From assembly GCF_016026235.1 (NCBI RefSeq), contig NZ_CP065614.1: a stretch of 64,000 nt of DNA; one strand, written 5' to 3'. The position numbers and the translations under genes were made by a program. This document shows, in pieces, positions 6,034-31,811 of this stretch. How positions within the stretch are numbered: the first letter of the stretch is position 1; each line of letters starts with the position of its first letter. Below the pieces are notes generated by a model. It saw nothing but the letters and a program-made list of their open reading frames with translations, ran no database searches and was not told the origin of the DNA. This stretch comes from Escherichia coli (GTDB lineage: Bacteria; Pseudomonadota; Gammaproteobacteria; Enterobacterales; Enterobacteriaceae).

Positions 6034-7281
6034 TTAAAATTTATAATGCTCCTTACTAAGACCGTATTTTTTCATTCTGAGATAGAGTTTTTTCCGCGGG
6101 ATTTGTAAATATTCAGCAACCTCATTGATACGCCCCTGATGGATATTAAGCGCCTCTGTGATTATCTGTCGCTCAGCGTCCTCCACTCGTCTGTCAAGCG
6201 GTGTCGGGGTTCCGACGTGCATCAACGGATTTGCTGTTTCTGCCAGCGGTAATACTCCTACAGTAAACAGTTCTGCTGCATTGGCCAGCTCTCGCACATT
6301 ATTTGGCCACATGCGGCGCATCATCTCTTTGAGCATCTCTTTTCCCACTTCCGGAACAGGATGGTTAAGTCGTTGACATGCTTTACAAAGGTAATGGCGA
6401 AACAGTGGTTCAATATCATCGGGGCGTTGAGCTAATGGCAGGCAAGCGATTTGTGTCATTGCAAAGCAGTAATAGAGCTCCGCGATGATATGGTTGCTGG
6501 CGACCAGCTCGACCAGCGAGGTGTCTCCAATACCAATCAGGCGAAAAGGTCTGTGTTCCTGGCTTTGTAACTGAACCAGATGGTACTGCTGTTCACGCGT
6601 CAGGTGTTCAGGATGGCTGAGCACTAATGTTCCCCCCTGAGCCAGCGCAATGAAATCATTAAGCTGTAGTGCATTGTCTGGTGTCAGCTCGCGGTAGACA
6701 AATTCGCCTTGTGCATTACGTCCAAATTGGTGCAGATAACGTGCACCGGTCATCCGTCCTGTGCCTGGGGCCCCGTAGAGCCAGACGGCAATATCTGTTT
6801 CAGACAACTGCTGTAAACGTCGCCGATACTGATTTATCCATTCACTTCTCCCTATCAACTCCACCTGCAACGTCTGTTGGCAATACTGACGACGCGCAAT
6901 GATTGATTGACGCTGGCGTAGCGCCTCTTCAACCAGAGAAAGCAATTTGCCGGGATCAACCGGTTTTTGCAAAAAATCCCACGCGCCTTTTTTTACCGCA
7001 TCAACTGCCATTGGCACGTCGCCGTGCCCGGTGATAAGCAGAATGGGGATCTGTTGATCATCCTGGTGGAATAACATCATCAAATCGATACCAGAGCAGC
7101 CAGGCATACACACATCACTTAGCACAATACCTGGCCAGTCTGGTTGTATCCACGCCTGCGCCTCAAAAGGATTGTTACAGGCAAAAACCCGATAGCCTGA
7201 CTGTTCAAGTAATTGTGTGTAGGCGTCCAGCACGTCAGCATCATCATCAATCAGCAGAATCGAATATTCACTACTTAGCAT
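6034..7281 (-). CDS. pgtA: PgtA-like NtrC-family response regulator (receiver + AAA+ + C-terminal HTH)
   Basis: Contains ILLIDDD...SDVCMPG (receiver), GAPGTGR, and a C-terminal Fis-type HTH (ITEALNIHQGRINEVAEYLQIPRKKLYLRMKK). The start is taken at MLSSEY. An alternative ATG lies at 7290. Confidence 0.8.
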   Translation of the reverse strand: MLSSEYSILLIDDDADVLDAYTQLLEQSGYRVFACNNPFEAQAWIQPDWPGIVLSDVCMPGCSGIDLMMLFHQDDQQIPILLITGHGDVPMAVDAVKKGAWDFLQKPVDPGKLLSLVEEALRQRQSIIARRQYCQQTLQVELIGRSEWINQYRRRLQQLSETDIAVWLYGAPGTGRMTGARYLHQFGRNAQGEFVYRELTPDNALQLNDFIALAQGGTLVLSHPEHLTREQQYHLVQLQSQEHRPFRLIGIGDTSLVELVASNHIIAELYYCFAMTQIACLPLAQRPDDIEPLFRHYLCKACQRLNHPVPEVGKEMLKEMMRRMWPNNVRELANAAELFTVGVLPLAETANPLMHVGTPTPLDRRVEDAERQIITEALNIHQGRINEVAEYLQIPRKKLYLRMKKYGLSKEHYKF

Positions 7282-9280
7282 CTTCCACATCCGTTAGTCT
7301 GAATTGCAGTACCACACAGGCATTCCTGGTCATCGTTGATGCCAGCCGTAATTCCCCTTTCATTTGCTCCATCAACGACACACAAATTGAAAGACCAATA
7401 CCCAGTCCTACTTCTTTACTGGTGGTAAACGGCTTCAATAACGAAGGCAACAATGCCTCAGGCCAGCCCGGGCCATTATCGCCAATGAATATGTTCAGCG
7501 TTTTACCCTGCATTTGCCAGTTAACGGTAATGACAGCGCCTTGCCCACAAACATCAAGCGCATTCGCCAGTACGTTAACCAGTACCTGCTGGGTTCTGAC
7601 CTCATCGCCTGAAACTGTGGCTGTACCTTGCGGCAGAACAAGCGTAGCTTGCAGAGGGCGATGACGCATGGCCAGAAGTTCCCAGGCCGCACTGAACATC
7701 TGTGCTAAATCAACGGCATGGAGTAATGTTTCCAGTTCGGCGCGCCGGGTAAACTGCCGTAGTGAACGGATAATGGCGTCAATGCGACCAATCACCCCTT
7801 CGGCTTTACCAAGCATCATGCTGGCCTGTTCTGTCTGGGTCTGTTCAATGGCCCTGCGGGCTGTAAACAGATACATCGACAGCGCATTTAGCGGCTGATT
7901 GATCTCGTGGGCCAGCGTGGTCATCGTTTGCCCGACTACCGCCAGCTTCGCTGTCTGAATCAGTTCGTCCTGGGTGGCGCGCAGATCGGCTTCTATCACC
8001 TTTCGATCGGTAATTTCTTGTTCAAGTTGCTGTTTTTGCACATTGAGCTGCCCGAGAGTATGGCGTAATAATCCTGCAATTCTCCCCAATTCATCATTCC
8101 CATAAACAGGAATAGTCGTTTCCGTGCCTCCCAGGCCAATTTGCACAACGGCCTGATTCAGTAGGGCAAAGCGTTTCACCAACCGTGAGCGGATAAAATA
8201 ATGGTTGAATACCCATGCCAGCAGTAACGCCAGTGCTGTCGCCACCAGGATCAGCCCACCGCTAACGCGAACAATTTGTTCCATTCGTTGATTAAACATC
8301 TGCATTTGTTGATGAGTACTGCCAAGCTGCGCTTCCAGTAACATTCTGAAGCGACCCAGTGTCACTTCCCTGGTGCGACTGGCATCCTCTAAGGCTTTTT
8401 GGGCGGCGACATATTCACGCATCGTATCCGGCATTTTATTTTTTACGATTCCCATATCCAGCAATTCATCGATGGTCTGCCTCAGGGTAATGGTGCCAGG
8501 CCAGTCATCCAGCATACGTATATTTTCATCTGCCGTTTTTTTCAGATTTTCAAAATAACGGAGATGAGTTTCCACCTGTATATCGTCATCACGTCCTGAT
8601 TTGAGCTCATTGAGTCTGTCACGCAGATCGTCAACAATCTGATTTTCAATGCGTGCCAAGGTATAAACCTGCTGCTGTTCATTTTGCACTTCACGAGATC
8701 GCTTCAGGTATTGCGCCGTATCGCCCTGTCGGGAGGCGATTTGATCCAGCAGCGTTCCCTGCTGCCAGGTGAAATCCTGCACTAAAGAATTAAGCTCGGT
8801 AGTAAAATCATCGTGTAACCAGTCAATCCGCGCTGATAGCTCACTCACCTTTTCCCGTAGTAAAAACATGTTGTAAAGCGCACGATCCAACCCGGATAAC
8901 AGTGATCGACTGTCCTGCAAAATGACCGTCAGTTGTTGGCGTTCCCGGGATGACAGTCCCCGACTAAGCCGTTCTATGGTGTCGAGATGCTGAATAATCT
9001 GGGTACGAAGTTGCAATCGCACCGTGGTGTTGGGAGCCTGCAAAAATTCATTTAGCTGGTCTACCACCAGATTCAGGTTCCCTTCAATAAGGAAAGCAGA
9101 GTGAATACGGGGAAAATACTCATCCAGCGAGTAACGAATTTGTGAGCTTTGTTCATGCCATGAATACAGACTGACACTACTGACAATCAGGGTCAGAAGT
9201 GCCCCCATCAGAAATGCGCAACGTAAGCTGGTACTGATACTGACCTGTCTTAAACGCTGCCACAGCGTTATGTTTTTCAT
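7271..9280 (-). CDS. pgtB: PgtB-like sensor histidine kinase
   Basis: 669 aa, with an N-terminal TM segment, a second TM segment, an H-box (TLAHEINQPLNA) and an ATPase G-box (IGDNGPGW...GLGIGL). Overlaps pgtA and pgtC. Confidence 0.8.
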   Translation of the reverse strand: MKNITLWQRLRQVSISTSLRCAFLMGALLTLIVSSVSLYSWHEQSSQIRYSLDEYFPRIHSAFLIEGNLNLVVDQLNEFLQAPNTTVRLQLRTQIIQHLDTIERLSRGLSSRERQQLTVILQDSRSLLSGLDRALYNMFLLREKVSELSARIDWLHDDFTTELNSLVQDFTWQQGTLLDQIASRQGDTAQYLKRSREVQNEQQQVYTLARIENQIVDDLRDRLNELKSGRDDDIQVETHLRYFENLKKTADENIRMLDDWPGTITLRQTIDELLDMGIVKNKMPDTMREYVAAQKALEDASRTREVTLGRFRMLLEAQLGSTHQQMQMFNQRMEQIVRVSGGLILVATALALLLAWVFNHYFIRSRLVKRFALLNQAVVQIGLGGTETTIPVYGNDELGRIAGLLRHTLGQLNVQKQQLEQEITDRKVIEADLRATQDELIQTAKLAVVGQTMTTLAHEINQPLNALSMYLFTARRAIEQTQTEQASMMLGKAEGVIGRIDAIIRSLRQFTRRAELETLLHAVDLAQMFSAAWELLAMRHRPLQATLVLPQGTATVSGDEVRTQQVLVNVLANALDVCGQGAVITVNWQMQGKTLNIFIGDNGPGWPEALLPSLLKPFTTSKEVGLGIGLSICVSLMEQMKGELRLASTMTRNACVVLQFRLTDVEDAK

Positions 9281-10184
9281 TTCAGCTCTTCCAGTTTTTT
9301 TATCGCCAGGCGCTGGTTATTCAGAAACCAGAGTTGCCATTCCATCATTTGCTGCTCGGCAAAGCTTTTGTTATCGAACTGTGCCAGCCAGACGGGATCT
9401 TCACTGCTGGCCGCTGCAACGGGCACTTGTGTTAACAGTGCACGTATTTCTGGTAATGGTTTCTTCAGGCGTGCCTCGGTACTGTGCAGCGCTCGCCAGG
9501 CATCTTTTAGCTGCGCTAACCGAAAGCTAATTGCCGTATCAAACAAGCGCTGCACCAGACGTTGACGTTTCAGGATAAGGTGGTAATTCAGCGGGGGTTG
9601 ATTCATCAGGAACTGTTGTTGCGTTGCCCGCGGATTGTCTGCGGCAAGTGGTGTCACAGGATATTTTCCTGTATTGGCATCGGCCAGAATACGCTGTCCT
9701 TTCGGACTTAACAGGTAGTGAATAAAGCGACGGGCTGCATCGGCGTGTGGGCTTTTCCTGAGAATGGCAACGTAGGTGGGAGATACCGCAGACCGGGGGA
9801 AATAGGTAAAAGAGAGATGGGGGTCATTTAACAGTAAATTGGCATAGTTATCGATAACGGGGCCGGCAACACCGAGCCCGCTTTTTATTTTATCGGCTAC
9901 GCCAAAACTGCGGGAGGAGATTGTCACCAGGTTTCCTGCACTTGTCAGCAACGTTTCCCATCCTTTCACCCAGCCTTTTTGCTGTAGTAATGACTCAACC
10001 ATTAAATGGTTAGTATCTGAACGCGACGGACTACTCATCAATAAAGCGTCCTGATAGATCGGCAAAGCAAGATCGTCCCAGTCAGCAGGGGCAGGAAGGT
10101 GTTTTACAGAAAGCGCCGGACGATTAATGAGCAGACCAAAACCTGATATTGCTACTGCAACGGAGGTTGGGTAATGACTCCAAC

Positions 10185-10688
10185 TTACTGATAGTGTTTT
10201 ATGTTCAGATAATGCCCGATGACCTTGTCATGCAGCTCCACCGATTTTGAGAACGACAGTGACTTCCGTCCCAGCCTTGCCAGATGTTGTCTCAGATTCA
10301 GATTATGTCGCTCAATGCGCTGAGTGTAACGCTTGCTGATAACGTGCAGCTTTCCCTTCAGGCGTGATTCATACAGCGGCCAGCCATCCGTCATCCATAC
10401 CACGACCTCAAAGGCCGACAGCAGGCTCAGAAGACGCTCCAGTGTGGCCAGAGTGCGTTCACCGAAGACGTGCGCCACAACCGTCCTCCGTATCCTGTCA
10501 TACGCGTAAAACAGCCAGCGCTGACGTGATTTAGCACCGACGTAGCCCCACTGTTCGTCCATTTCAGCGCAGACAATCACATCACTGCCCGGTTGTATGC
10601 GCGAGGTTACCGACTGCGGCCTGAGTTTTTTAAGTGACGTAAAACCGTGTTGAGGCCAACGCCCATAATGCGTGCACTGGCGCGACAT
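10185..10688 (-). CDS. insB: IS1 InsB frame (made as InsAB by frameshift)
   Basis: The 167-aa ORF overlaps the insA end. Contains the motif [28 protein letters not shown]. Confidence 0.9.
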
Positions 10689-10882
10689 CCGACGCCATTC
10701 ATGGCCATATCAATGATTTTCTGGTGCGTACCGGGCTGAGAGGCGGTGTAAGTGAACTGTAGTTGCCATGTTTTACGGCAATGAGAGCAGAGATAGCGCT
10801 GATGTCCGGCAGTGCTTTTGCCGTTACGCACCACGCCTTCAGTAGCGGAGCAGGAAGGACATCTGATGGAAATGGAAGCCAC
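10607..10882 (-). CDS. insA: IS1 InsA
   Basis: [40 protein letters not shown]... Confidence 0.9.
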
Positions 10883-11669
10883 GCAAGCACCTTAAAATCA
10901 CCATCATACACTAAATCAGTAAGTTGGCAGCATTACCCGGAGGTTGTACGGATCGACTCCGGCACCAGGTTTTGGCTTTCTGCGGGTGCATCATCAAACG
11001 GGGCCAGTTTCTGGTGCTCCTGAAGGTACTGGAGCAGCATTGGTGATGAAGTCAGGATCAGATCGACGTTTTCTACGTTGGCCATATCAAGCAACTGTTC
11101 CAGTGAGGCACTGGTGCGGTTAAGCGTACGGATCATTACCGACTCAGGCTCTGTTTGCCAGCGCTGTATTATCCACGCGGTAGCTCCGGGTGAGAATGTG
11201 GTGGCCATCACCAGTTCATTTCGTTGAGCCCTGACGGCCCTGGCATCCATCAGCAGCAGTAAAAGAATCATGGTTTTGATGCCGATTTCGCACCAGCTAA
11301 AAAATCGGTTTGTGATCCAGGTCATAAATATTAATACACCGCAAAAATCGCATTGAGACAAAAATTACCCGTTACAGACACTTCATCTGATAACACGTCT
11401 GCTCAAAGAGACCGTTAATATATTAATCAGAGATTACCCGATAATCAGCATGAGATTTGTTAATATCCGCACATGCTAACAATAAAACAGATAAAGCATA
11501 AATCTATCCTGTCTATGCATCAATAAAATGGGTCAAAAACAGGCTTTGATTTTATTATTTTGTGTCAATTGTGACACATTTTTTCAGTTTGATGTTTCAT
11601 CTCAATTATATGACTCTCATTGCCAGAATTCTCTTGATGTTCATATCAATATAAAATACAGGTGAAGAC

Positions 11670-22849: not shown

Positions 22850-23102
22850 ATGTCACACAACCTGGAGCACCAGAAAGCCCACACCAGAATGGTGAAAGAG
22901 GTTCTGAAATCCGTCGCCAGAGCCAATAATCACCCTTATCCGTCCGTATTTGCAGACTTTATCGCCGGTCATCCCTCCTGCACGGTCTGTTTCTGGGAAA
23001 CCTTCCACAAAATGTACCCGGATTCACCGTACGAATACGTCACGTTCTGCCATACCTGCCGTCGTTTTGATTTATACGAAACAGAAGCGGAGATGAAGGC
23101 GG

Positions 23103-23122
<20 letters not shown>
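22850..23122 (+). CDS. IS91-family accessory ORF (90 aa, Cys/His-rich)
   Basis: Conserved upstream of the transposase in copies A and E, with one aa difference between them. Confidence 0.6.
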
Positions 23123-25613
<2,491 letters not shown>

Positions 25614-25985
25614 TGCAGGATAAGTGCGCCCGGGAATCGGGGTAAGTATAAAAAACGGCCGATTACAGTATTAAAACCGTCCACAGAAAGAAAAAAACAC
25701 CGGCGTGATGTGAAAAACAGCTTACCGCACGAGGCATAAGACGCGGACAGTGGTATCGCTTAGTTTTTCAATTTCCTATACGTGAACAGGCATAGCTGTG
25801 ATTTCATTGAATTATTGGCACAAATCAGTTGATCGTACAATGCTGTGCCTGTCTCGTTTTCTGGAGATTCCTCAGCCTCATGGAGCGGCGTAACAGGCGT
25901 ACCGGCAGGACAGAGATGTTTGCTTTTCCTAGTCCGGCCAGTTTAGTGGAATAACGGAGTTTTTATCCCATGTTTTTTCCCCCGA

Positions 25986-27161
25986 TCACGACTTTTTCAA
26001 ATCAATGCTCAGAATACGTTCTTTAGCTCCTTCCACAAACACATCAGGATCCCAATCGCGGTTAAAGCCTTCTTTGATGCCAATGTAAAGGGTATCCATA
26101 TCGTCCGACAACACCATCTGGTTTGGGTAGACCGGCATGTTAAATTCACGGGTGATGCTGTATTTGGTGGCATCCACTACGCTGATGGTGCCGCTAGTGA
26201 AGTTGGTGACATACAGTTCGTTATATTTCGGATTGTATTTCACCGCGTTAGCTCCGGCTCCTGTGTGCACATAGCCAAGCTGTTTACCGTCGCGTAAGTC
26301 AAAAATATAGAGGCCATCTTTTGTACCGGAACGATCGTCATGGTCGAATACCACCACAAAGGCACGGTCAGAAGCGGAGTCCACCGCCAGATTCTGCACA
26401 CTTGTGATTTGTGGTCTCGGATCTTTCAACGGGATGGTACGCAGCAGCGTCTGATTTTTCGCATCAATTTCGTTGATGTAATCTCTTCCGCCAACGTAGA
26501 TTTTCTGTGTTTTTTCATCCATCGTCAGACCATACGCTGTACCTTTGTAAGCATCCTTAACCTCGCCTTTTAAGGCAAGCGTCGTCCCGTCGAGCATTAA
26601 CAGCTTATGCAGAGGCTTCATGCCCTCGGCCGTTTTCAGCATATTGCTATAACTCACAAACAGGGTATCGGAATCCTGGCTGTAAACCATATGGCGCAAA
26701 TGCTCAAAACGCGAATCTGCAGCGTTTGCCGCTTTAAAACTTAACCTGTCGCTGGTTCTTACCAGTTTGCCGGTTGGGGTGTCAAACATACTGATACGCA
26801 GGGACGCTGACTGGGTGTGTCCGATATAGAGCTGATGTTTATCCTGATTTATCGCCAGCGAAAATGCCCGGTATGGCATCGTGTATTTATTTTCGACTTT
26901 CAGCGAATCTGAATTAAACGAATACAGATAGCCTTTATTGGCTTCACGATTTACACGATCGGTGACTGCTGCAAACACCTTTTTACTGGCATTATCAAAC
27001 GCCAGTTCATAGACGCCTTCATCAGGGGACTGAAGGTAATTCGTTTTCAGGGCAAATCGCGAAAGTTCGCGTTCAGGTGGATCGATAGCCATGGCCATCG
27101 TGGGTAAAAATAGTGAAATTAACAGGTATAGCGGTGCTTTGGATAAAGTGAAAATATTCAT
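25986..27161 (-). CDS. YncE-like periplasmic beta-propeller protein (YVTN repeat type)
   Basis: Signal peptide MNIFTLSKAPLYLLISLFLPTMAMA. 391 aa from this start. Repeated ...YV.....I.V.D... blades. Confidence 0.65.
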   Translation of the reverse strand: MNIFTLSKAPLYLLISLFLPTMAMAIDPPERELSRFALKTNYLQSPDEGVYELAFDNASKKVFAAVTDRVNREANKGYLYSFNSDSLKVENKYTMPYRAFSLAINQDKHQLYIGHTQSASLRISMFDTPTGKLVRTSDRLSFKAANAADSRFEHLRHMVYSQDSDTLFVSYSNMLKTAEGMKPLHKLLMLDGTTLALKGEVKDAYKGTAYGLTMDEKTQKIYVGGRDYINEIDAKNQTLLRTIPLKDPRPQITSVQNLAVDSASDRAFVVVFDHDDRSGTKDGLYIFDLRDGKQLGYVHTGAGANAVKYNPKYNELYVTNFTSGTISVVDATKYSITREFNMPVYPNQMVLSDDMDTLYIGIKEGFNRDWDPDVFVEGAKERILSIDLKKS

Positions 27162-27229
27162 TTTTCGTTCCTGCAATAAAATTGACATAAGAGAGAAAAC
27201 GTATTGTCTGAACCTGGCGGAAATTGTCA

Positions 27230-29491
27230 TCAGAAACGAATGTCCCCGCCAAATATCCATGTTCTGCCACGCGCGGAATTGGCTGGGTGGGTCTCGTCAC
27301 CAAGACCTGGCATCATGTTGAGCTTATTCAGCGCCTCCGAATAATCTCTGTTCATCAGGTTTTGTACCGAAAGTTTCAGTGTCAGGTTGCGGTTGTACTC
27401 GTAAGTACCATAGAGATCGATAATCGTTGGGATCTGCGGCAAATCCTGTTTGATTATTGCGCCGGTATGTTCGTCCTGCTCAAAATCAGGCGACAGGCGA
27501 CGAGCCTTGCCTGTGTATTTTATGATAGTGCCCAGGGTCAACGCGTTATCGAAGAAGCGAACACCAGTATCCAGCGTCATGTATTTTCTGGGCAGTTCGG
27601 TCATATCCCCTGCGCCAAAGTAGGTGCTGGCGATGGAGGTTGGCTGGTCTGTTTGCTGCTGGCTGAAAGAGAGTCGGCCAAAAGCAAAACCTGCATCATA
27701 ATCCATCTCCAGTTCGAAGCCCTTTGCAATAACGTCGCTTGCCGAGTTAACGTAGATGTACATATTGTCGCTGTATTCATCGCTAATGCCCTCCCAGTCA
27801 TTGCCAATCACCTCAGCCATACTGCATTTACGACCTCCAGAACAAACCAGATAAGACTCGCTGTAGATGTAGTTCTGGATCCTGCTGCGGTACGCCAGAG
27901 CCTTAAAGCGCAGGGCATCCTGTTCGACCAGTAAATCTCTGGTATCAATGTTAAAACCCGCCTGCCAGGTTTCTGCACGTTCAGGCTTCAGGAATGGGTT
28001 CATGGATGCGCCTCCTGAATTAGAGAAGAACATCTCCTGGATGTTCGGGGCGCGCATGGATTTGCTGTAGCCAATGAACGGCTGAAGCCATGGTGTTACC
28101 TGAGCAGAAAGCTGAACTGAAGGGTTGAAGCCACCCTCTTTATCGTCAATATCGTAGCTACCCTGTGGCACGCAGATAACGCGTGAATCGCAGGCGGGCT
28201 TGTACCCTGTGATCCTGTTACGTGTGTAGTTGAGATTGAAATCTGCCTCCCAGATGCCGCGCGTAACCTTCAGCCCGGTATACAGCGCTGAAATATCCTG
28301 CTGGCCGGAGGGTGCGAACGGATTGTTCTCGATCGATTCCTGATTCGCTTTCGGGTCGCCCGCCGCTGAGTGAATGGTCCGGTCATAGCGGGTACGCATC
28401 AGTTTGCTGCCCAGCATAAACTCCAGTTCATTGTCCGCGACAGTGAACCGGCTGGTATTGTTGATATCCAGCGCGTCAGAACGATTTTGCGCTGAGGTTT
28501 TGTAGAAAGTATACAGCGAGCCATCACGATACTTTTGATTACCGCGACTGGTACTGGCCGTTACGTTAAAGTCAATTAATTCAGAAAAAGGGGTGTAATG
28601 ATATTTAATGTAATAGTCGTCACTGGTTATATCACGACGTGTAAATTTATTTTCATAGGTTCGAGCGGAAAGTTCGAAGCTGTTAAATTCGTCTGGTCTG
28701 ATATCCATTTTATACAGTTGGGATTTGGGGTTCTGCTTCATATATTTATCATAACCAAACTCTTTGCTGTTAATTCCAGAACCATTTGAGAAATTAGAGT
28801 ACACAGAACTGCCGCTCACAGCAGCCATAACGCCAATGCTTCCCGTATCCGTAAAAGCGTCGCTTTTTCCACCAAGGGCGATCATTCCGCTGCGTCCCAG
28901 CCCATTACTACCGACAGAGAAACGTGAACGAAGGCCATATGTATTACCGTTAAATATTACATCGTCAACGCCAATAGTACGCATATTTGCACTACCGGCA
29001 AGGGCGTTGATCCCTTCAGAGCCACTGCTGTCACCGCGTGTAACATCAACTGCTACCAGTAAGTTAGGATCTATAAGTACGCCAGCCATATTGTTAGTTG
29101 AACCATGCGCCGTTGTTCCGGAGGTAGAGGTTCCGTAAAAACTCTGGGTAATACCATCGACCATAGTGTTTACACGACCAAATCCGCTCATGCCTCGAAT
29201 ATTCACACTGATTGCTCCCTGACCAGGATCTATTTGAGTATAAGTACCAGGCATACTACGCACTGTTGCGTCAAGTGATTGCAGGTTTTTGTCCGTTGTC
29301 CGGGAACTGGTCGCGCCTGTTTTCTCGAGAGCTTCCTGCTCACTGGTCGTCTTCCCGACAGAAACGCTGAGCGGACTGAATTCTGCCGCTCCTTTTTTGT
29401 CGGAATTAGTTTTTTCACTGATGGATTGTGAGTAAGCACCGCAGCTGAGCAATAATATGCCTGAGCCGATAGCCAGTTTTATAACGTTCAT
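27230..29491 (-). CDS. TonB-dependent outer-membrane receptor (haem/haemoglobin-receptor-like family)
   Basis: 753 aa with a signal peptide, a plug domain (ISVNIRGMSGFGRVNTMVDG) and a C-terminal ...TWIFGGDIRF. Carries the FRAP/NPNL-like pair MRAP...NPFL. Confidence 0.85.
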   Translation of the reverse strand: MNVIKLAIGSGILLLSCGAYSQSISEKTNSDKKGAAEFSPLSVSVGKTTSEQEALEKTGATSSRTTDKNLQSLDATVRSMPGTYTQIDPGQGAISVNIRGMSGFGRVNTMVDGITQSFYGTSTSGTTAHGSTNNMAGVLIDPNLLVAVDVTRGDSSGSEGINALAGSANMRTIGVDDVIFNGNTYGLRSRFSVGSNGLGRSGMIALGGKSDAFTDTGSIGVMAAVSGSSVYSNFSNGSGINSKEFGYDKYMKQNPKSQLYKMDIRPDEFNSFELSARTYENKFTRRDITSDDYYIKYHYTPFSELIDFNVTASTSRGNQKYRDGSLYTFYKTSAQNRSDALDINNTSRFTVADNELEFMLGSKLMRTRYDRTIHSAAGDPKANQESIENNPFAPSGQQDISALYTGLKVTRGIWEADFNLNYTRNRITGYKPACDSRVICVPQGSYDIDDKEGGFNPSVQLSAQVTPWLQPFIGYSKSMRAPNIQEMFFSNSGGASMNPFLKPERAETWQAGFNIDTRDLLVEQDALRFKALAYRSRIQNYIYSESYLVCSGGRKCSMAEVIGNDWEGISDEYSDNMYIYVNSASDVIAKGFELEMDYDAGFAFGRLSFSQQQTDQPTSIASTYFGAGDMTELPRKYMTLDTGVRFFDNALTLGTIIKYTGKARRLSPDFEQDEHTGAIIKQDLPQIPTIIDLYGTYEYNRNLTLKLSVQNLMNRDYSEALNKLNMMPGLGDETHPANSARGRTWIFGGDIRF

Positions 29492-29659
29492 AAATTTCCT
29501 TGGATATAATATTAATAAAGATAAGTATAACTATTTGTTTATTAATTATGATCTACTGTCTTTTTGATTTTTTCGACAGTGGAAAAGTTTGATAAAATGT
29601 TCAGCATAAAAATGAAAATTAAATTTCAGTTAAATGAACTTGAACGGCCAATTATCCCT

Positions 29660-30436
29660 TTACTCCTTCAACTTAAAGGTAATCGGCATTTTTACTTTAA
29701 ATAATCCTCCCTCCAATATTTCAGGCGGTGGTTTGGGAAGTGGTTGAGCGCGTTCTAAAACAGCAATAGCTTCGCGGTCAAGAGAAAGGGTTCCTGAAGA
29801 GATTTCCAAGAAACTACTGACAATAGTGCCTTCCGTGTTTACGGTAAAAGTCACAACGGCTGTGCCGGTTCGTGCACGTTTTCTGGCATCGCCAGGGTAA
29901 CGTTTATAACGGTTAAGGTGGCCTTTTACTCTGCTTTCCCAAGATGCCTCAGAATTATCTCGCTTTGTTGAGTCACTGTTAAAAGGCGCAGCAATACGGG
30001 ACGATTCGACCAGAGCCTGAGGTGCAGCATTACTGGAAACGGCTGTGGGGTTGCTGTCGCTGGTTTGAGCCTTTATCTTACGAGGTGGACGTGTCTTTTT
30101 CTTTTCTCCATCGGATGACTTTTTCTTCCTAGTTATTTCAATGGTTGCATCACTGTCTTCAGTGACAGGACGTTGTTGTCTGTCCTCAGTTTGTTGCTTT
30201 TCTTCTGTCACTGCGGACTCCTGTTGAGCGATTCCCACCGGAAGCGAAAGTGGAGAAGAAGGAGCCTCTATAATTTCTGCCCATTGCAGCATGATCGCCG
30301 GTGCAGGAGACATAGCGGGCTGAACTTCGGAAAAACGCCAGATAAACGTAAGGAAAATCAGTCCATGAAGCAGTAGAGAACAGATAAACCAGCTGCTCCA
30401 TTTTACCGACTGTGGGAAGTGGAGAATATTCATCAT
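29660..30436 (-). CDS. TonB-like energy transducer
   Basis: N-terminal TM anchor, a charged linker rich in P/E/K/Q, and a C-terminal TonB domain (YKRYPGDARKRARTGTAVVTFTVNTEGTIV). Confidence 0.8.
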   Translation of the reverse strand: MMNILHFPQSVKWSSWFICSLLLHGLIFLTFIWRFSEVQPAMSPAPAIMLQWAEIIEAPSSPLSLPVGIAQQESAVTEEKQQTEDRQQRPVTEDSDATIEITRKKKSSDGEKKKTRPPRKIKAQTSDSNPTAVSSNAAPQALVESSRIAAPFNSDSTKRDNSEASWESRVKGHLNRYKRYPGDARKRARTGTAVVTFTVNTEGTIVSSFLEISSGTLSLDREAIAVLERAQPLPKPPPEILEGGLFKVKMPITFKLKE

Positions 30437-30443
30437 CCATGGT

Positions 30444-31319
30444 TTACCTTTTTGTTGTATCTGGCGCTACAAACCACACGTAGTCAGCATGATCTACTGT
30501 GATGTTCATTCCTTTTTCTGCAAGCATCAACACCACTGGATGGGTGCCGGTGGCAAGATCTTCCATGTGTAACGGTACGCCCATGCTTTTTGACGCGTGA
30601 TAACCACCTGCAATCAACAACGACGGTACCGGGGCACTCAGAAGCTGGCGGGCCATGTAGCGATCCCGCTGCTGCTGAACAGAGAGCATTGACGTCAGTT
30701 GCTGGCTTTCAAGGTTGCCTTCATGCATAGCTATGATGGTTTCACGCAGAGCTTCTTGTACCACAGGTGCAGTGGATTTTTTTCCTTTAGGAAATTCGTT
30801 TTTTTTGTACAGTGCCAACATCTGCTCCCGGCCAATGTTGGCATTGAGCAGCGGGTAAGGCCCACGTAATAGCTGCATGACGATGTCGCCATACATCTCC
30901 CAGGACCACCCTTTTTGCCAGTTAAGTAGTTCCTGAACACGGCTATCTCGAACCACAGGATTATCTTTCAGCCAACATTTAACTTGGTTAACTCGGGGCT
31001 GTTGGTCTGACGTCAACATCTCAAGCAACACACTCCCCTGTGGTCGCTGGATGAGCAGATTTTGAATAAGCCAAAGCTCAATCTGATGATGCTCGGCATT
31101 ATCGTGTTTTTCACCAATAATAAGATGTCGAGCGGTAGCAAGATCCGCCAAAAGCTCGCTGCTAGAAATAATTTTGCCACTGTGCAAATCGTAAATCTGC
31201 CCGTCAATCAGGAAAGCTTTCTGCCCTGGCGCATCCTGCTTTATGGTGACATTCTGTCTGCAGGCTCCCAGACTAACACTAGCTAACGTTATCATAGAAA
31301 TAAGGATGAACTTTCTCAT
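30444..31319 (-). CDS. ChaN-like (haem-binding uptake, Tiki-superfamily) lipoprotein
   Basis: Lipobox in MRKFILISMITLASVSLGAC. GEKHDNAEHH motif. The start is taken at MRKF. The track ORF begins at 31361. Confidence 0.65.
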   Translation of the reverse strand: MRKFILISMITLASVSLGACRQNVTIKQDAPGQKAFLIDGQIYDLHSGKIISSSELLADLATARHLIIGEKHDNAEHHQIELWLIQNLLIQRPQGSVLLEMLTSDQQPRVNQVKCWLKDNPVVRDSRVQELLNWQKGWSWEMYGDIVMQLLRGPYPLLNANIGREQMLALYKKNEFPKGKKSTAPVVQEALRETIIAMHEGNLESQQLTSMLSVQQQRDRYMARQLLSAPVPSLLIAGGYHASKSMGVPLHMEDLATGTHPVVLMLAEKGMNITVDHADYVWFVAPDTTKR

Positions 31320-31395
31320 ATTCCCATCTGAAACAATATATTTCCATATATTTATTGACAAAACATTAATTATGATAAAACATCAAAGAATAAAT

Positions 31396-31414
31396 GTAAA
31401 TAATTATCATTACC
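31396..31414 (-). promoter_or_regulatory. Fur box
   Basis: The minus strand reads GGTAATGATAATTATTTAC, matching the consensus GATAATGATAATCATTATC at 15 of 19 positions. About 80 nt upstream of the ChaN-like start codon. Confidence 0.6.
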
Positions 31415-31460
31415 AACAAAAAGAATGCACTAGCGAGTGATGTTTACCAGCCGATATTAT

Positions 31461-31483
31461 GGGGTCCGCTTGGAAAACGGATC
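31461..31483 (+). repeat. Solo partial Tn3/Tn21-type terminal inverted repeat
   Basis: Reads GGGGTCCGCTTGGAAAACGGATC. The first 15 nt are identical to both IRs of the miniature element at 36128-36412. Confidence 0.5.
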
Positions 31484-31811
31484 TATGGTCACTCCCGTTT
31501 TTGCAACACCGATTTTGACGATAAGTGGGCTTGCTTGAATCTATCCGGAGTCTGAATGGGATTTCATTCCCGCGCCCCGATGAGTTCCGCGCCTGATGTA
31601 CATGTCGAAGAAAACGGCCGGCGGGAGGAATACGGCGCGCTACCTAGGTCGTTATCTGAAGAAGCCGCCGATAGCGGCCTCCCGGCTGGCACATTACAAC
31701 GGAGGGGCGAGCCTGAGCTTCCGTTACCTGGACCACAAAACGGGAGAAACGGCGACGGAAACGCTGACACAGCGTGAGCAGGTCGCGAGGCTGAAACAGC
31801 ACATCCCGGAG

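Follow-up and report, generated by a model that had tools for sequence, protein, structure and literature searches.

A four-gene TonB island on an Escherichia coli plasmid is the known cjrABC-senB operon, with chromosomal relatives in other Enterobacteriaceae

The island at positions 25986–31414 of the analysed window (a stretch of 64,000 nucleotides from E. coli) is cjrABC-senB, which was already known and was rediscovered here in a genome scan; the four genes very probably constitute this operon as carried by the EIEC/Shigella invasion plasmid, serving Fur-controlled outer-membrane uptake with a private TonB. The island is 100% identical over 5.8 kb to the EIEC invasion plasmid pCFSAN029787_01, 99.9% identical to pINV of Shigella boydii, S. 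dysenteriae and S. flexneri, and 99.5% identical to pUTI89-like ExPEC IncF plasmids, and at least 522 plasmids hold at least 80% of it. The operon was named in 2001 (Smajs & Weinstock), followed by Cusumano 2010, the colicin Z work of 2019 (Micenkova/Smajs) and Huang 2020. It plays a part in UTI and is frequent among pUTI89-like plasmids, and one survey recorded it in 37% of F-plasmid-positive bloodstream isolates. It ranks among the commonest virulence-plasmid markers of bloodstream and urinary E. coli, and is also what the Shigella/EIEC-specific colicins Js and Z target. Added here are the conserved chromosomal Fur-box module, the alternative oligopeptidase-B accessory, and TdfH and HasR as nearest relatives, which narrow the range of worthwhile experiments.

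Island boundaries, regulation and encoded proteins

All four co-directional minus-strand genes described in the initial annotation were present as ORFs on that strand, in a neighbourhood containing virF, ipaH and ospE2. A block of 6,029 bp (25783–31811) is common with ExPEC IncF (pUTI89-like) plasmids (99.47% by blastn against one such plasmid) and is the unit that moves between plasmid backbones. On the senB side, the bounding IS91 copy (22850–25783, plus strand) was confirmed, its 3′ end abutting the island at 25783, and is interrupted by an IS3-family element at about 24052–25354. On the other side, a partial Tn3-type end had been proposed at 31461; a repeat of ~140 bp does start there (31461–31598), but its Tn3 type was not upheld, as it represents a terminal fragment of an IS4321/IS5075-like (IS110 family) element. 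Copies with 91–96% identity are found on thousands of plasmids, and in the one plasmid examined the repeat lies at the outer edge of a 1,327-bp span containing an IS4321 transposase gene. It is followed by a 5′-truncated IS91 copy (31597–33699, plus strand) split by IS4 (31811–33238), as delineated from self-comparison, plasmid comparison and ORFs. The ORF list of the island contains no further ORF of note and therefore no exbBD, periplasmic binding protein, permease or haem oxygenase gene, as had been initially observed.

The Fur box (31396–31414, minus strand; GGTAATGATAATTATTTAC, matching GATAATGATAATCATTATC at 15/19 positions) overlaps the −35 hexamer of the best sigma-70-like promoter 5′ of cjrA (31372–31400, minus strand; TTTACA, 17 nt, TATCAT; 10/12 in a consensus scan). 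For this promoter the match is to the consensus only, and the region has no more promoter-like sites than chance would give. The Fur box is the sole site with at least 15/19 matches in the 64-kb window, where block shuffles gave an expectation of 0.15, and for the 241 nt upstream P is about 0.001. Its distance to the cjrA ATG is 76 nt, in line with the approximately 80 nt first given. At least 18 homologous modules on chromosomes have a Fur box of 15–17/19 at the equivalent position. No Zur box was found at cjr; the highest-scoring candidate (15/23) coincides in part with the AT-rich Fur site. A single putative Fur-box promoter precedes cjrA, cjrB, cjrC and senB; the Fur box has been published as functional and the operon as iron-repressed (PMC7412671), and temperature regulation of its expression has also been published.

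The first gene, cjrA (30444–31319, minus strand), encodes a ChaN/PhuW-family lipoprotein; the coordinates were taken from the ATG giving 291 aa, whereas the mechanical TTG ORF extends to 31361. The N-terminus, MRKFILISMITLASVSLGAC, contains the lipobox LGAC, confirming the lipobox initially read as SLGAC, and the ChaN assignment is supported by Pfam PF04187 (E 1e-34; 120.8 bits against a cut-off of 27.7; profile positions 1–212 of 213) and by a full-length match to the ChaN structure 2g5g (E 1.4e-30). Two GxxH motifs, GEKH at 69 and GGYH at 238, are both conserved. CjrA was located in the inner-membrane fraction and causes serum sensitivity (PMC7412671); it has been compared to PhuW of a haem operon and put forward as a Shigella vaccine antigen.

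The TonB homologue initially placed 8 nt past the ChaN gene is indeed a TonB homologue, lying 7 nt after the cjrA stop. This gene, cjrB (29660–30436, minus strand), encodes a dedicated TonB paralogue of 258 aa, with an N-terminal membrane anchor containing CSLLLHG (S-x3-H) and a TonB C-terminal domain (TonB_C PF03544, E 8e-11, 42.6 bits against a cut-off of 24.6; TIGR01352, E 2e-19, 69.9 bits against 27.1). As first described, a gap of 168 nt (29492–29659, minus strand), which is AT-rich and has no Rfam match, separates it from cjrC (27230–29491, minus strand), encoding a TonB(CjrB)-dependent outer-membrane receptor of 753 aa in which Plug and barrel domains were recognised. Colicins Js and Z use CjrC as their surface receptor, and CjrB together with ExbB/ExbD, but not TonB, is needed for entry of both (PMC6668396); cjrBC suffice for colicin Z sensitivity, for which exbB and exbD are required and tonB or tol are not (PMC6668396), and colicin Js requires CjrB and CjrC (PMC7412671). 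Published experiments have shown that CjrB energises CjrC via the chromosomal ExbB/ExbD motor, without host TonB. They agree with the initial proposal of a Fur-controlled outer-membrane and periplasmic acquisition module with its own dedicated TonB and without an importer.

Chromosomal modules, cargo and the role of SenB

The four-gene order and the conserved Fur box were found on the chromosomes of about 20 other Enterobacteriaceae species in differing contexts, which speaks for a self-contained functional unit under iron control, with senB as one of its members. No dedicated inner-membrane importer accompanies the chromosomal module in most species carrying it, and neither a haem oxygenase nor a haem permease was linked to it in about 30 loci; an ABC importer divergently adjoins the module in Klebsiella aerogenes, in this one species only, and is not clearly of the ferric-iron type. 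The nearest relatives of the plasmid CjrABC, from Cedecea and Serratia, have no senB and contain a secreted oligopeptidase-B-like gene of ~2.1 kb where the plasmid has the cjrB–cjrC spacer; nucleotide homology to one such close-relative locus (L044) ends at window position 29655 and restarts at 29550, with L044 positions 6799–8904 skipped. SenB, on the other hand, is closest to Phytobacter, and the plasmid operon therefore looks mosaic. A CjrC relative in Janthinobacterium lies in the order ChaN-ExbB-ExbD-TonB-receptor.

In its normal role the system would bring an iron source across the outer membrane by TonB-type import under Fur control. Cargo handling in the periplasm may fall to CjrA and SenB, and transfer into the cytoplasm could proceed via housekeeping chromosomal transporters. 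Cells expressing the operon have a compromised outer membrane and survive less well in serum (PMC7412671), indicating that its net benefit is context-dependent.

CjrC falls in the "haem/haemoglobin-transferrin-lactoferrin" receptor class. Haem uptake, in which CjrC imports haem, CjrA binds it in the periplasm like ChaN, and a housekeeping permease such as Dpp provides entry, is conceivable but tentative. The HMM classification proposed in the initial annotation returned the haem/haemoglobin receptor TIGR01785 as the best NCBIfam subfamily (E 3e-75), with a score of 254 bits, below the cut-off of 316.85. HasR is the second-closest solved relative (E 3e-28), and ShuA and PhuR are also among the solved relatives; CjrA aligns over its full length with haem-binding ChaN and has been likened to PhuW. 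The plug-apex His is kept in 13 of the 13 aligned CjrC family members, and the FRAP-like and NPNL-like boxes (MRAP...NPFLKPE) are present across the family. However, no family member has a His between the two boxes, TdfH, a zinc-piracy receptor, leads the solved relatives of CjrC by 50 orders of magnitude, and the absence of a linked haem oxygenase or haem permease also weighs against haem.

Another candidate cargo would be non-haem iron taken from a host protein or a peptide/chelate carrier, as by TdfH, TbpA or Campylobacter CtuA; the metal, or a fragment of its carrier, would reach the periplasm and be processed there by CjrA and SenB, or by an oligopeptidase B in the sister modules; judged from the sequence comparisons, this too is conceivable but tentative. 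The solved structure closest to CjrC by sequence is gonococcal TdfH (PDB 9oaa chain T, recognised as TdfH from cluster member names; E 1e-82 over plug and barrel), the source annotations of homologues include "NMB1497" and "hemoglobin/transferrin/lactoferrin receptor", and the plug resembles that of TbpA. ChaN is encoded beside a related receptor in Campylobacter, and both the secreted oligopeptidase-B homologue within the operon of the closest CjrABC relatives and the K. aerogenes ABC importer are consistent with such a cargo. Against it, TdfH exceeds CjrC by about 150 residues, so that CjrC probably lacks the long protein-binding loops, the ABC neighbour has the restricted occurrence and ambiguous type noted above, and the plasmid copy has no peptidase.

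A broader, more novel reading takes CjrABC as the core of a family of Fur-controlled, outer-membrane-only modules with either SenB or oligopeptidase B as accessory, the cargo being peptide- or protein-associated iron that is dismantled in the periplasm, the plasmid operon a recombinant, and SenB a cargo-handling protein rather than a toxin; as a whole, this combination is still rather doubtful. The cargo is suggested by the alternative periplasmic accessories together with the lack of an inner-membrane permease. Under the same module-family reading, the metal would continue through housekeeping transporters in these permease-less modules, and the recombinant would have joined a Cedecea/Serratia-type cjrABC, from which the peptidase was lost, to a Phytobacter/Raoultella-type senB. 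The N-terminal half of the secreted oligopeptidase B is likewise a propeller.

senB (tieB; 25986–27161, minus strand) encodes a Sec-signal periplasmic YncE-family seven-bladed beta-propeller; translation from the annotated ATG gives 391 aa, the mechanical maximum is the 424-aa ORF, and the signal peptide reads ...LPTMAMA/IDPP. The YncE-like propeller initially reported as the fourth gene product was borne out by sequence (E 2e-22 to YncE 3vgz) and by predicted fold, YncE being the best PDB match of the AlphaFold model (pLDDT 83; Foldseek E 3e-23, target-normalised TM 0.88, rmsd 3.1 Å to 3vgz), with unrelated propellers next at about 4e-14, 9 orders behind. Against the YncE equivalog NF052280 it scored 158 bits, below the cut-off of 400, and SenB is accordingly a homologue of YncE, not an orthologue. 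That senB is an enterotoxin or enterotoxin-production factor, functionally unrelated to cjrABC and its neighbour by chance, is very unlikely. The literature credits SenB with part of the EIEC/Shigella enterotoxic activity, and AMRFinderPlus labels it "enterotoxin production-related protein TieB" on identical plasmids. However, domain-profile searches found no toxin-like domain in this propeller, orthologues with 62–86% identity lie directly 3′ of ChaN-TonB-receptor genes on about 20 non-Shigella/EIEC Enterobacteriaceae chromosomes, and Alcaligenaceae also have a ChaN–SenB pair beside a related receptor. SenB is a YncE-family propeller and not a recognisable toxin, and its YncE-like nature tells more than the usual label "enterotoxin SenB/TieB"; the comparative picture argues against scoring senB as an enterotoxin gene in genomic surveys.

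The initial framing as a novel, uncharacterised TonB island, which could draw on the generic names in the automatic annotation of matching plasmids (ChaN family lipoprotein, energy transducer TonB, TonB-dependent receptor), is hardly credible and was rejected, because the DNA is identical to that of plasmids bearing the named cjrABC-senB, whose regulation, colicin-receptor role, ExbBD dependence and infection phenotypes are all in print; identity with an already characterised uptake system, which the initial annotation had named as the outcome that would overturn it, largely applies through the colicin Js/Z route and the Fur- and temperature-regulated operon.

Comparison with known systems

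In Campylobacter jejuni, chaN (cj0177), the cj0178 receptor gene and exbB-exbD-tonB form one locus, so that ChaN is encoded beside the receptor. As in cjr, a ChaN-family lipoprotein gene accompanies a TonB-dependent receptor and a private TonB; the plasmid operon differs in being without exbBD, borrowing the chromosomal pair, and in having senB as an extra gene. Among the HasR systems of Serratia and Pseudomonas, HasR is an STN-domain transducer, as is the CjrC-like receptor of Alcaligenaceae, which is FecI/FecR-coupled. CjrC, in contrast, has no N-terminal signalling domain, and the plasmid is without a hemophore, Has secretion genes or a sigma/anti-sigma pair.

TdfH (CbpA, NMB1497), the calprotectin-binding zinc-piracy receptor of Neisseria, is closest to CjrC among solved receptors by sequence, but it has 901 aa, so that CjrC is 148 residues shorter, and its metal is zinc, while cjr carries a Fur box instead of a Zur box. 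The Zur regulation of TdfH-type zinc piracy is not a feature of cjr, CjrC probably lacks the long calprotectin-binding loops, and the plug-apex His of the CjrC family is missing in the aligned TdfH segment. E. coli yncE, beside yncD/pqqU, resembles senB in encoding a propeller with a signal peptide and in adjoining a TonB-dependent receptor gene. The two proteins share about 22% identity, yncE is divergent from the receptor gene whereas senB lies downstream of it, and the invariant His residues of the SenB family (H115, H154, H157 and H274) are not conserved in YncE, which is dispensable for PQQ uptake according to the literature.

The published cjrABC-senB of pINV and of pUTI89/pRS218-type ExPEC plasmids agrees with the island in DNA (identical or 99.5–100%), gene order, gene lengths (291, 258 and 753 aa, plus senB), Fur box and plasmid type. 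There is no substantive difference, the copy described here being set apart by its flanks, with an IS4-carrying IS91 remnant upstream and an IS91 with an IS3-family insertion downstream.

The cjrABC-senB operon and its control region

The four-gene cluster on the minus strand at 25986-31414 is the named cjrABC-senB operon, which is already known. Its first gene, cjrA (30444-31319, minus strand), encodes a 291-aa lipoprotein of the ChaN/Tiki superfamily with the N-terminal lipoprotein signal MRKFILISMITLASVSLGAC and two GxxH motifs; the protein matches the whole Pfam ChaN profile PF04187 (E = 1e-34) and the ChaN crystal structure 2g5g (E = 1.4e-30). Only 7 nt separate the cjrA stop from the start of cjrB (29660-30436, minus strand), whose 258-aa product combines a TonB-type anchor (CSLLLHG) with a TonB C-terminal domain. 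An AT-rich spacer of 168 nt (29492-29659) leads to cjrC (27230-29491, minus strand), encoding a 753-aa TonB-dependent receptor with Plug and barrel domains, and a further 68 nt (27162-27229) to senB (25986-27161, minus strand), which encodes a 391-aa YncE-like propeller with a Sec signal peptide. Beyond these co-directional genes, no other sizeable ORF was found in 25986-31414, and Rfam models yielded no match in 25700-31700 even at E up to 1, leaving both spacers without a known RNA element. The ORFs and domain matches confirm the gene list of the initial annotation, and its observation held overall.

A Fur box, GGTAATGATAATTATTTAC, is located at 31414-31396, lies 76 nt ahead of the cjrA ATG and agrees with the 19-bp Fur consensus in 15 positions. 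The 64-kb window has no other site of that quality, and shuffles preserving local composition give 0.15 such sites per window; in the 241-nt upstream region, 0.1% of shuffles give such a site. In the best promoter-like site (TTTACA, 17 nt, TATCAT), the -35 hexamer is overlapped by the box, a classical layout for repression by Fur. Terminator and promoter scans gave matches not above chance, the Fur-overlapping promoter alone being noteworthy, and no convincing match to a Zur box was found. Between this promoter and the cjrA ATG, a single copy (ATGGAAAT, 31340-31347) of the VirB half-site motif RWGGAAAT was found; the window holds 18 matches to this motif versus 12 expected, an enrichment that is not significant. 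The founding paper on the operon reportedly gives protein lengths of 291, 258 and 753 aa and is said to attribute the temperature effect to VirB. Its title states the regulation by iron and temperature (Smajs & Weinstock 2001).

The identity of the operon was established by megablast of 25800-31600 against a plasmid collection, with identities taken over the full length, and a full-text literature search tied the cluster to the name cjrABC-senB. These reached 100% for E. coli pCFSAN029787_01 and other enteroinvasive E. coli (EIEC) plasmids, 99.9% for the invasion plasmids of Shigella boydii, S. dysenteriae and S. flexneri, and 99.5% for ExPEC IncF plasmids, and 80% or more of the query was present on at least 522 plasmids. 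Around the operon, the EIEC plasmid is annotated with virF, ipaH1.4/4.5/7.8 and ospE2, which indicate an invasion plasmid (pINV), and the fourth gene is annotated on the matching plasmids as senB, "enterotoxin production-related protein TieB". The cluster, which had been framed as an uncharacterised island, is thus sequence-identical to plasmids with the published operon and in essence a characterised system; the interpretation of it as an iron-regulated uptake module was right in kind, but the object itself was already known.

One study describes cjrABC-senB as preceded by a functional Fur box and repressed by iron, and colicin Js sensitivity as needing CjrB and CjrC (PMC7412671). The same study likens CjrA to PhuW, CjrB to TonB and CjrC to haem or siderophore receptors, found CjrA with the inner membrane on fractionation, and identified it as the main cause of complement sensitivity and outer-membrane leakiness (PMC7412671). 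For the colicin Z sensitivity of E. coli K-12, cjrB and cjrC are sufficient; exbB and exbD are needed, while tonB, tolA, tolB and tolQ are not (PMC6668396). A published study credits the cjr region of the ExPEC IncF plasmid pUTI89 with a contribution to early bladder infection. CjrA is immunogenic in shigellosis, and senB-cjrABC serves as a plasmid marker, being present in 37% of F-plasmid-positive bloodstream isolates. Two of these papers, PMC7412671 and the one reporting the plasmid marker, state that iron uptake by the operon itself has never been demonstrated.

Boundaries of the mobile block

The block in common with one ExPEC plasmid covers 25783-31811 (6,029 bp, 99.47% identity). Its senB-side edge is exactly the 3′ end of an IS91 copy (22850-25783), which is split at ~24052-25354 by an IS3-family element, presumably IS629 from its protein sequence. 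On the cjrA side is a repeat of ~140 bp (31461-31598), copies of which, 91-96% identical, occur on thousands of Klebsiella, E. coli and Enterobacter plasmids. In the one case examined, plasmid NZ_CP012567.1, this repeat forms the outer end of a 1,327-bp span with an IS4321 (IS110 family) transposase gene; judging by that case, 31461-31598 is probably an IS4321/IS5075-type end fragment rather than the Tn3-type end that the initial annotation had placed at 31461. The repeat abuts a 5′-truncated IS91 (31597 onward), which is split by IS4 (31811-33238) and whose homology returns at 33238-33699. Two IS91 copies in the same orientation (31597-33699 and 22850-25783) bracket the operon, and the one upstream of cjrA lacks its cargo-side end through the 5′ truncation. 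A truncated rolling-circle IS91 beside cargo resembles ISCR-type gene capture, and this may account for the movement of the 6-kb block between pINV and IncF ExPEC plasmids.

Chromosomal relatives and an apparently mosaic plasmid operon

Many Enterobacteriaceae carry SenB homologues of 62-86% identity on the chromosome. When one genome per species was scanned and the resulting 29 loci were screened with phmmer, the same order of ChaN, TonB, receptor and SenB genes emerged in about 20 Enterobacteriaceae species, including Phytobacter, Raoultella, Yokenella, several Klebsiella, Silvania, Leclercia, Dryocola, Pluralibacter, Intestinirhabdus and Buttiauxella. The flanks of these modules vary from genus to genus, and nearly all the loci have a Fur box of 15-17/19 at the position equivalent to that on the plasmid. 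The chromosomal Fur boxes and gene order support a module that is iron-regulated throughout the family. In the Alcaligenaceae (Castellaniella, Corticimicrobacter), a ChaN-like gene immediately precedes the SenB-like gene, and these loci together with those of the Enterobacteriaceae support the view that senB is functionally part of the uptake module. Two Alcaligenaceae loci, L036 (4806-11161) and L030 (Corticimicrobacter), contain a divergent CjrC-like receptor gene (52% identity), encoding an STN signalling domain, beside FecI/FecR-type sigma and anti-sigma genes, and this arrangement is a cell-surface-signalling version of the cjr system. SenB-like genes of 62-65% identity were also seen in Cedecea colo (L026) and Klebsiella spallanzanii (L027), in both at ~10001-11176, with no CjrA, CjrB or CjrC homologue detected within 10 kb, indicating that the propeller is not confined to the module.

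In Klebsiella aerogenes (L002/L003, 1864-5508), an ABC importer composed of a solute-binding protein, a fused double permease and an ATPase adjoins the cjr-like module divergently, with Fur boxes within the shared intergenic region. An ABC importer adjoins the module in no other locus of the remaining ~25, and NCBIfam gave no ferric-specific assignment for that of K. aerogenes; on these two grounds, derivation of the plasmid operon by truncation from an Fbp/Kfu-type ferric ABC importer locus was dropped as a general explanation. The chromosomal loci support that the module normally travels without an inner-membrane importer.

Sequence comparison points to an apparently mosaic plasmid operon. 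Plasmid SenB shares 86% identity with Phytobacter SenB, against only 49, 37 and 51% for CjrA, CjrB and CjrC. The receptors of the compared loci fall into at least three types, which are ~50% identical to one another, and SenB identity varies smoothly across these loci from 62 to 86%. The CjrC search returned a Cedecea-like assembly (L044, 88% identity), Cedecea neteri (82%), a further assembly (78%) and Serratia marcescens (68%), and CjrA and CjrB of the Cedecea-like assembly are 70% identical to the plasmid proteins. All four of these closest CjrC loci (L044, L041, L042 and L046) have the order ChaN, TonB, peptidase S9, receptor, and senB is absent from all four. The peptidase encoded between TonB and receptor is homologous to oligopeptidase B (NF007511, 898 bits versus a cut-off of 1313) and has a signal peptide and a GGSAGG serine motif. 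At the nucleotide level, the plasmid and L044 align over cjrA-cjrB at 72%, and a second aligned stretch (79%) begins 59 nt before cjrC and extends 19 nt beyond its stop codon; the alignment omits exactly the 2.1-kb peptidase gene (L044 6799-8904), opposite the 168-nt plasmid spacer. From 27180 onward the best match becomes Phytobacter senB (79%), which places a junction within the 68-nt cjrC-senB spacer.

The peptidase-type loci are also preceded by Fur boxes (15-16/19), and a Janthinobacterium relative has the order ChaN, ExbB, ExbD, TonB, receptor. The peptidase-type, senB-type and Janthinobacterium loci indicate that the conserved core consists of ChaN, TonB and the receptor, and the accessory to this core is either SenB or a secreted oligopeptidase B. 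The plasmid arrangement could derive from recombination between the two subtypes or from differential loss in an ancestor with both accessories; loss stays plausible, since Buttiauxella combines a type-II-like receptor (64%) with SenB (66%).

Proposed uptake route, cargo and relation to known systems

The four genes would be transcribed from the cjrA promoter under iron limitation and, on pINV, at 37 °C through VirB. CjrC would take an iron-bearing ligand at the cell surface, and CjrB, drawing on chromosomal ExbB/ExbD, would open its plug; the periplasmic ligand could then be received or processed by the lipoprotein CjrA and the soluble propeller SenB, and iron or haem would pass on through housekeeping inner-membrane transporters. 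The private TonB co-varies with receptor type among the compared loci, and probably shields the receptor from competition for TonB. What remains of interest is the substrate that the known operon imports, the evidence for the "enterotoxin" SenB as a conserved part of an uptake module in the periplasm, the alternative oligopeptidase-B accessory and the apparent mosaicism.

The best curated family for CjrC is the haem/haemoglobin receptor subfamily, matched below its cut-off (254 versus 316.85 bits). Of the solved structures, 9oaa chain T is its closest relative by a wide margin (E = 1e-82); this chain was identified indirectly, through a search with the aligned fragment and the names of cluster members, as TdfH of Neisseria gonorrhoeae, a calprotectin-binding zinc-piracy receptor; HasR is the next relative (3e-28), and ShuA, PhuR and TbpA are weaker. 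The plug-apex histidine and the FRAP-like and NPNL-like boxes (MRAP...NPFLKPE) are conserved in the CjrC family, and no histidine was found between these boxes, so that the classical haem signature is incomplete. From these sequence features we conclude that the cargo is probably an iron source, with haem and protein- or peptide-associated iron about equally likely.

SenB aligns with E. coli YncE across its entire length (E = 2e-22), and sequence similarity to the oligopeptidase-B propeller was not detectable. Its AlphaFold model (pLDDT 83, pTM 0.82) has YncE as the top PDB match in Foldseek (E = 3e-23, TM 0.88, rmsd 3.1 Å), followed by unrelated seven-bladed propellers at ~4e-14. Four histidines of SenB (H115, H154, H157 and H274, including the EHLRHMV motif) are invariant in homologues down to 45% identity. 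They may constitute a candidate metal- or haem-binding site, and all four are replaced in YncE.
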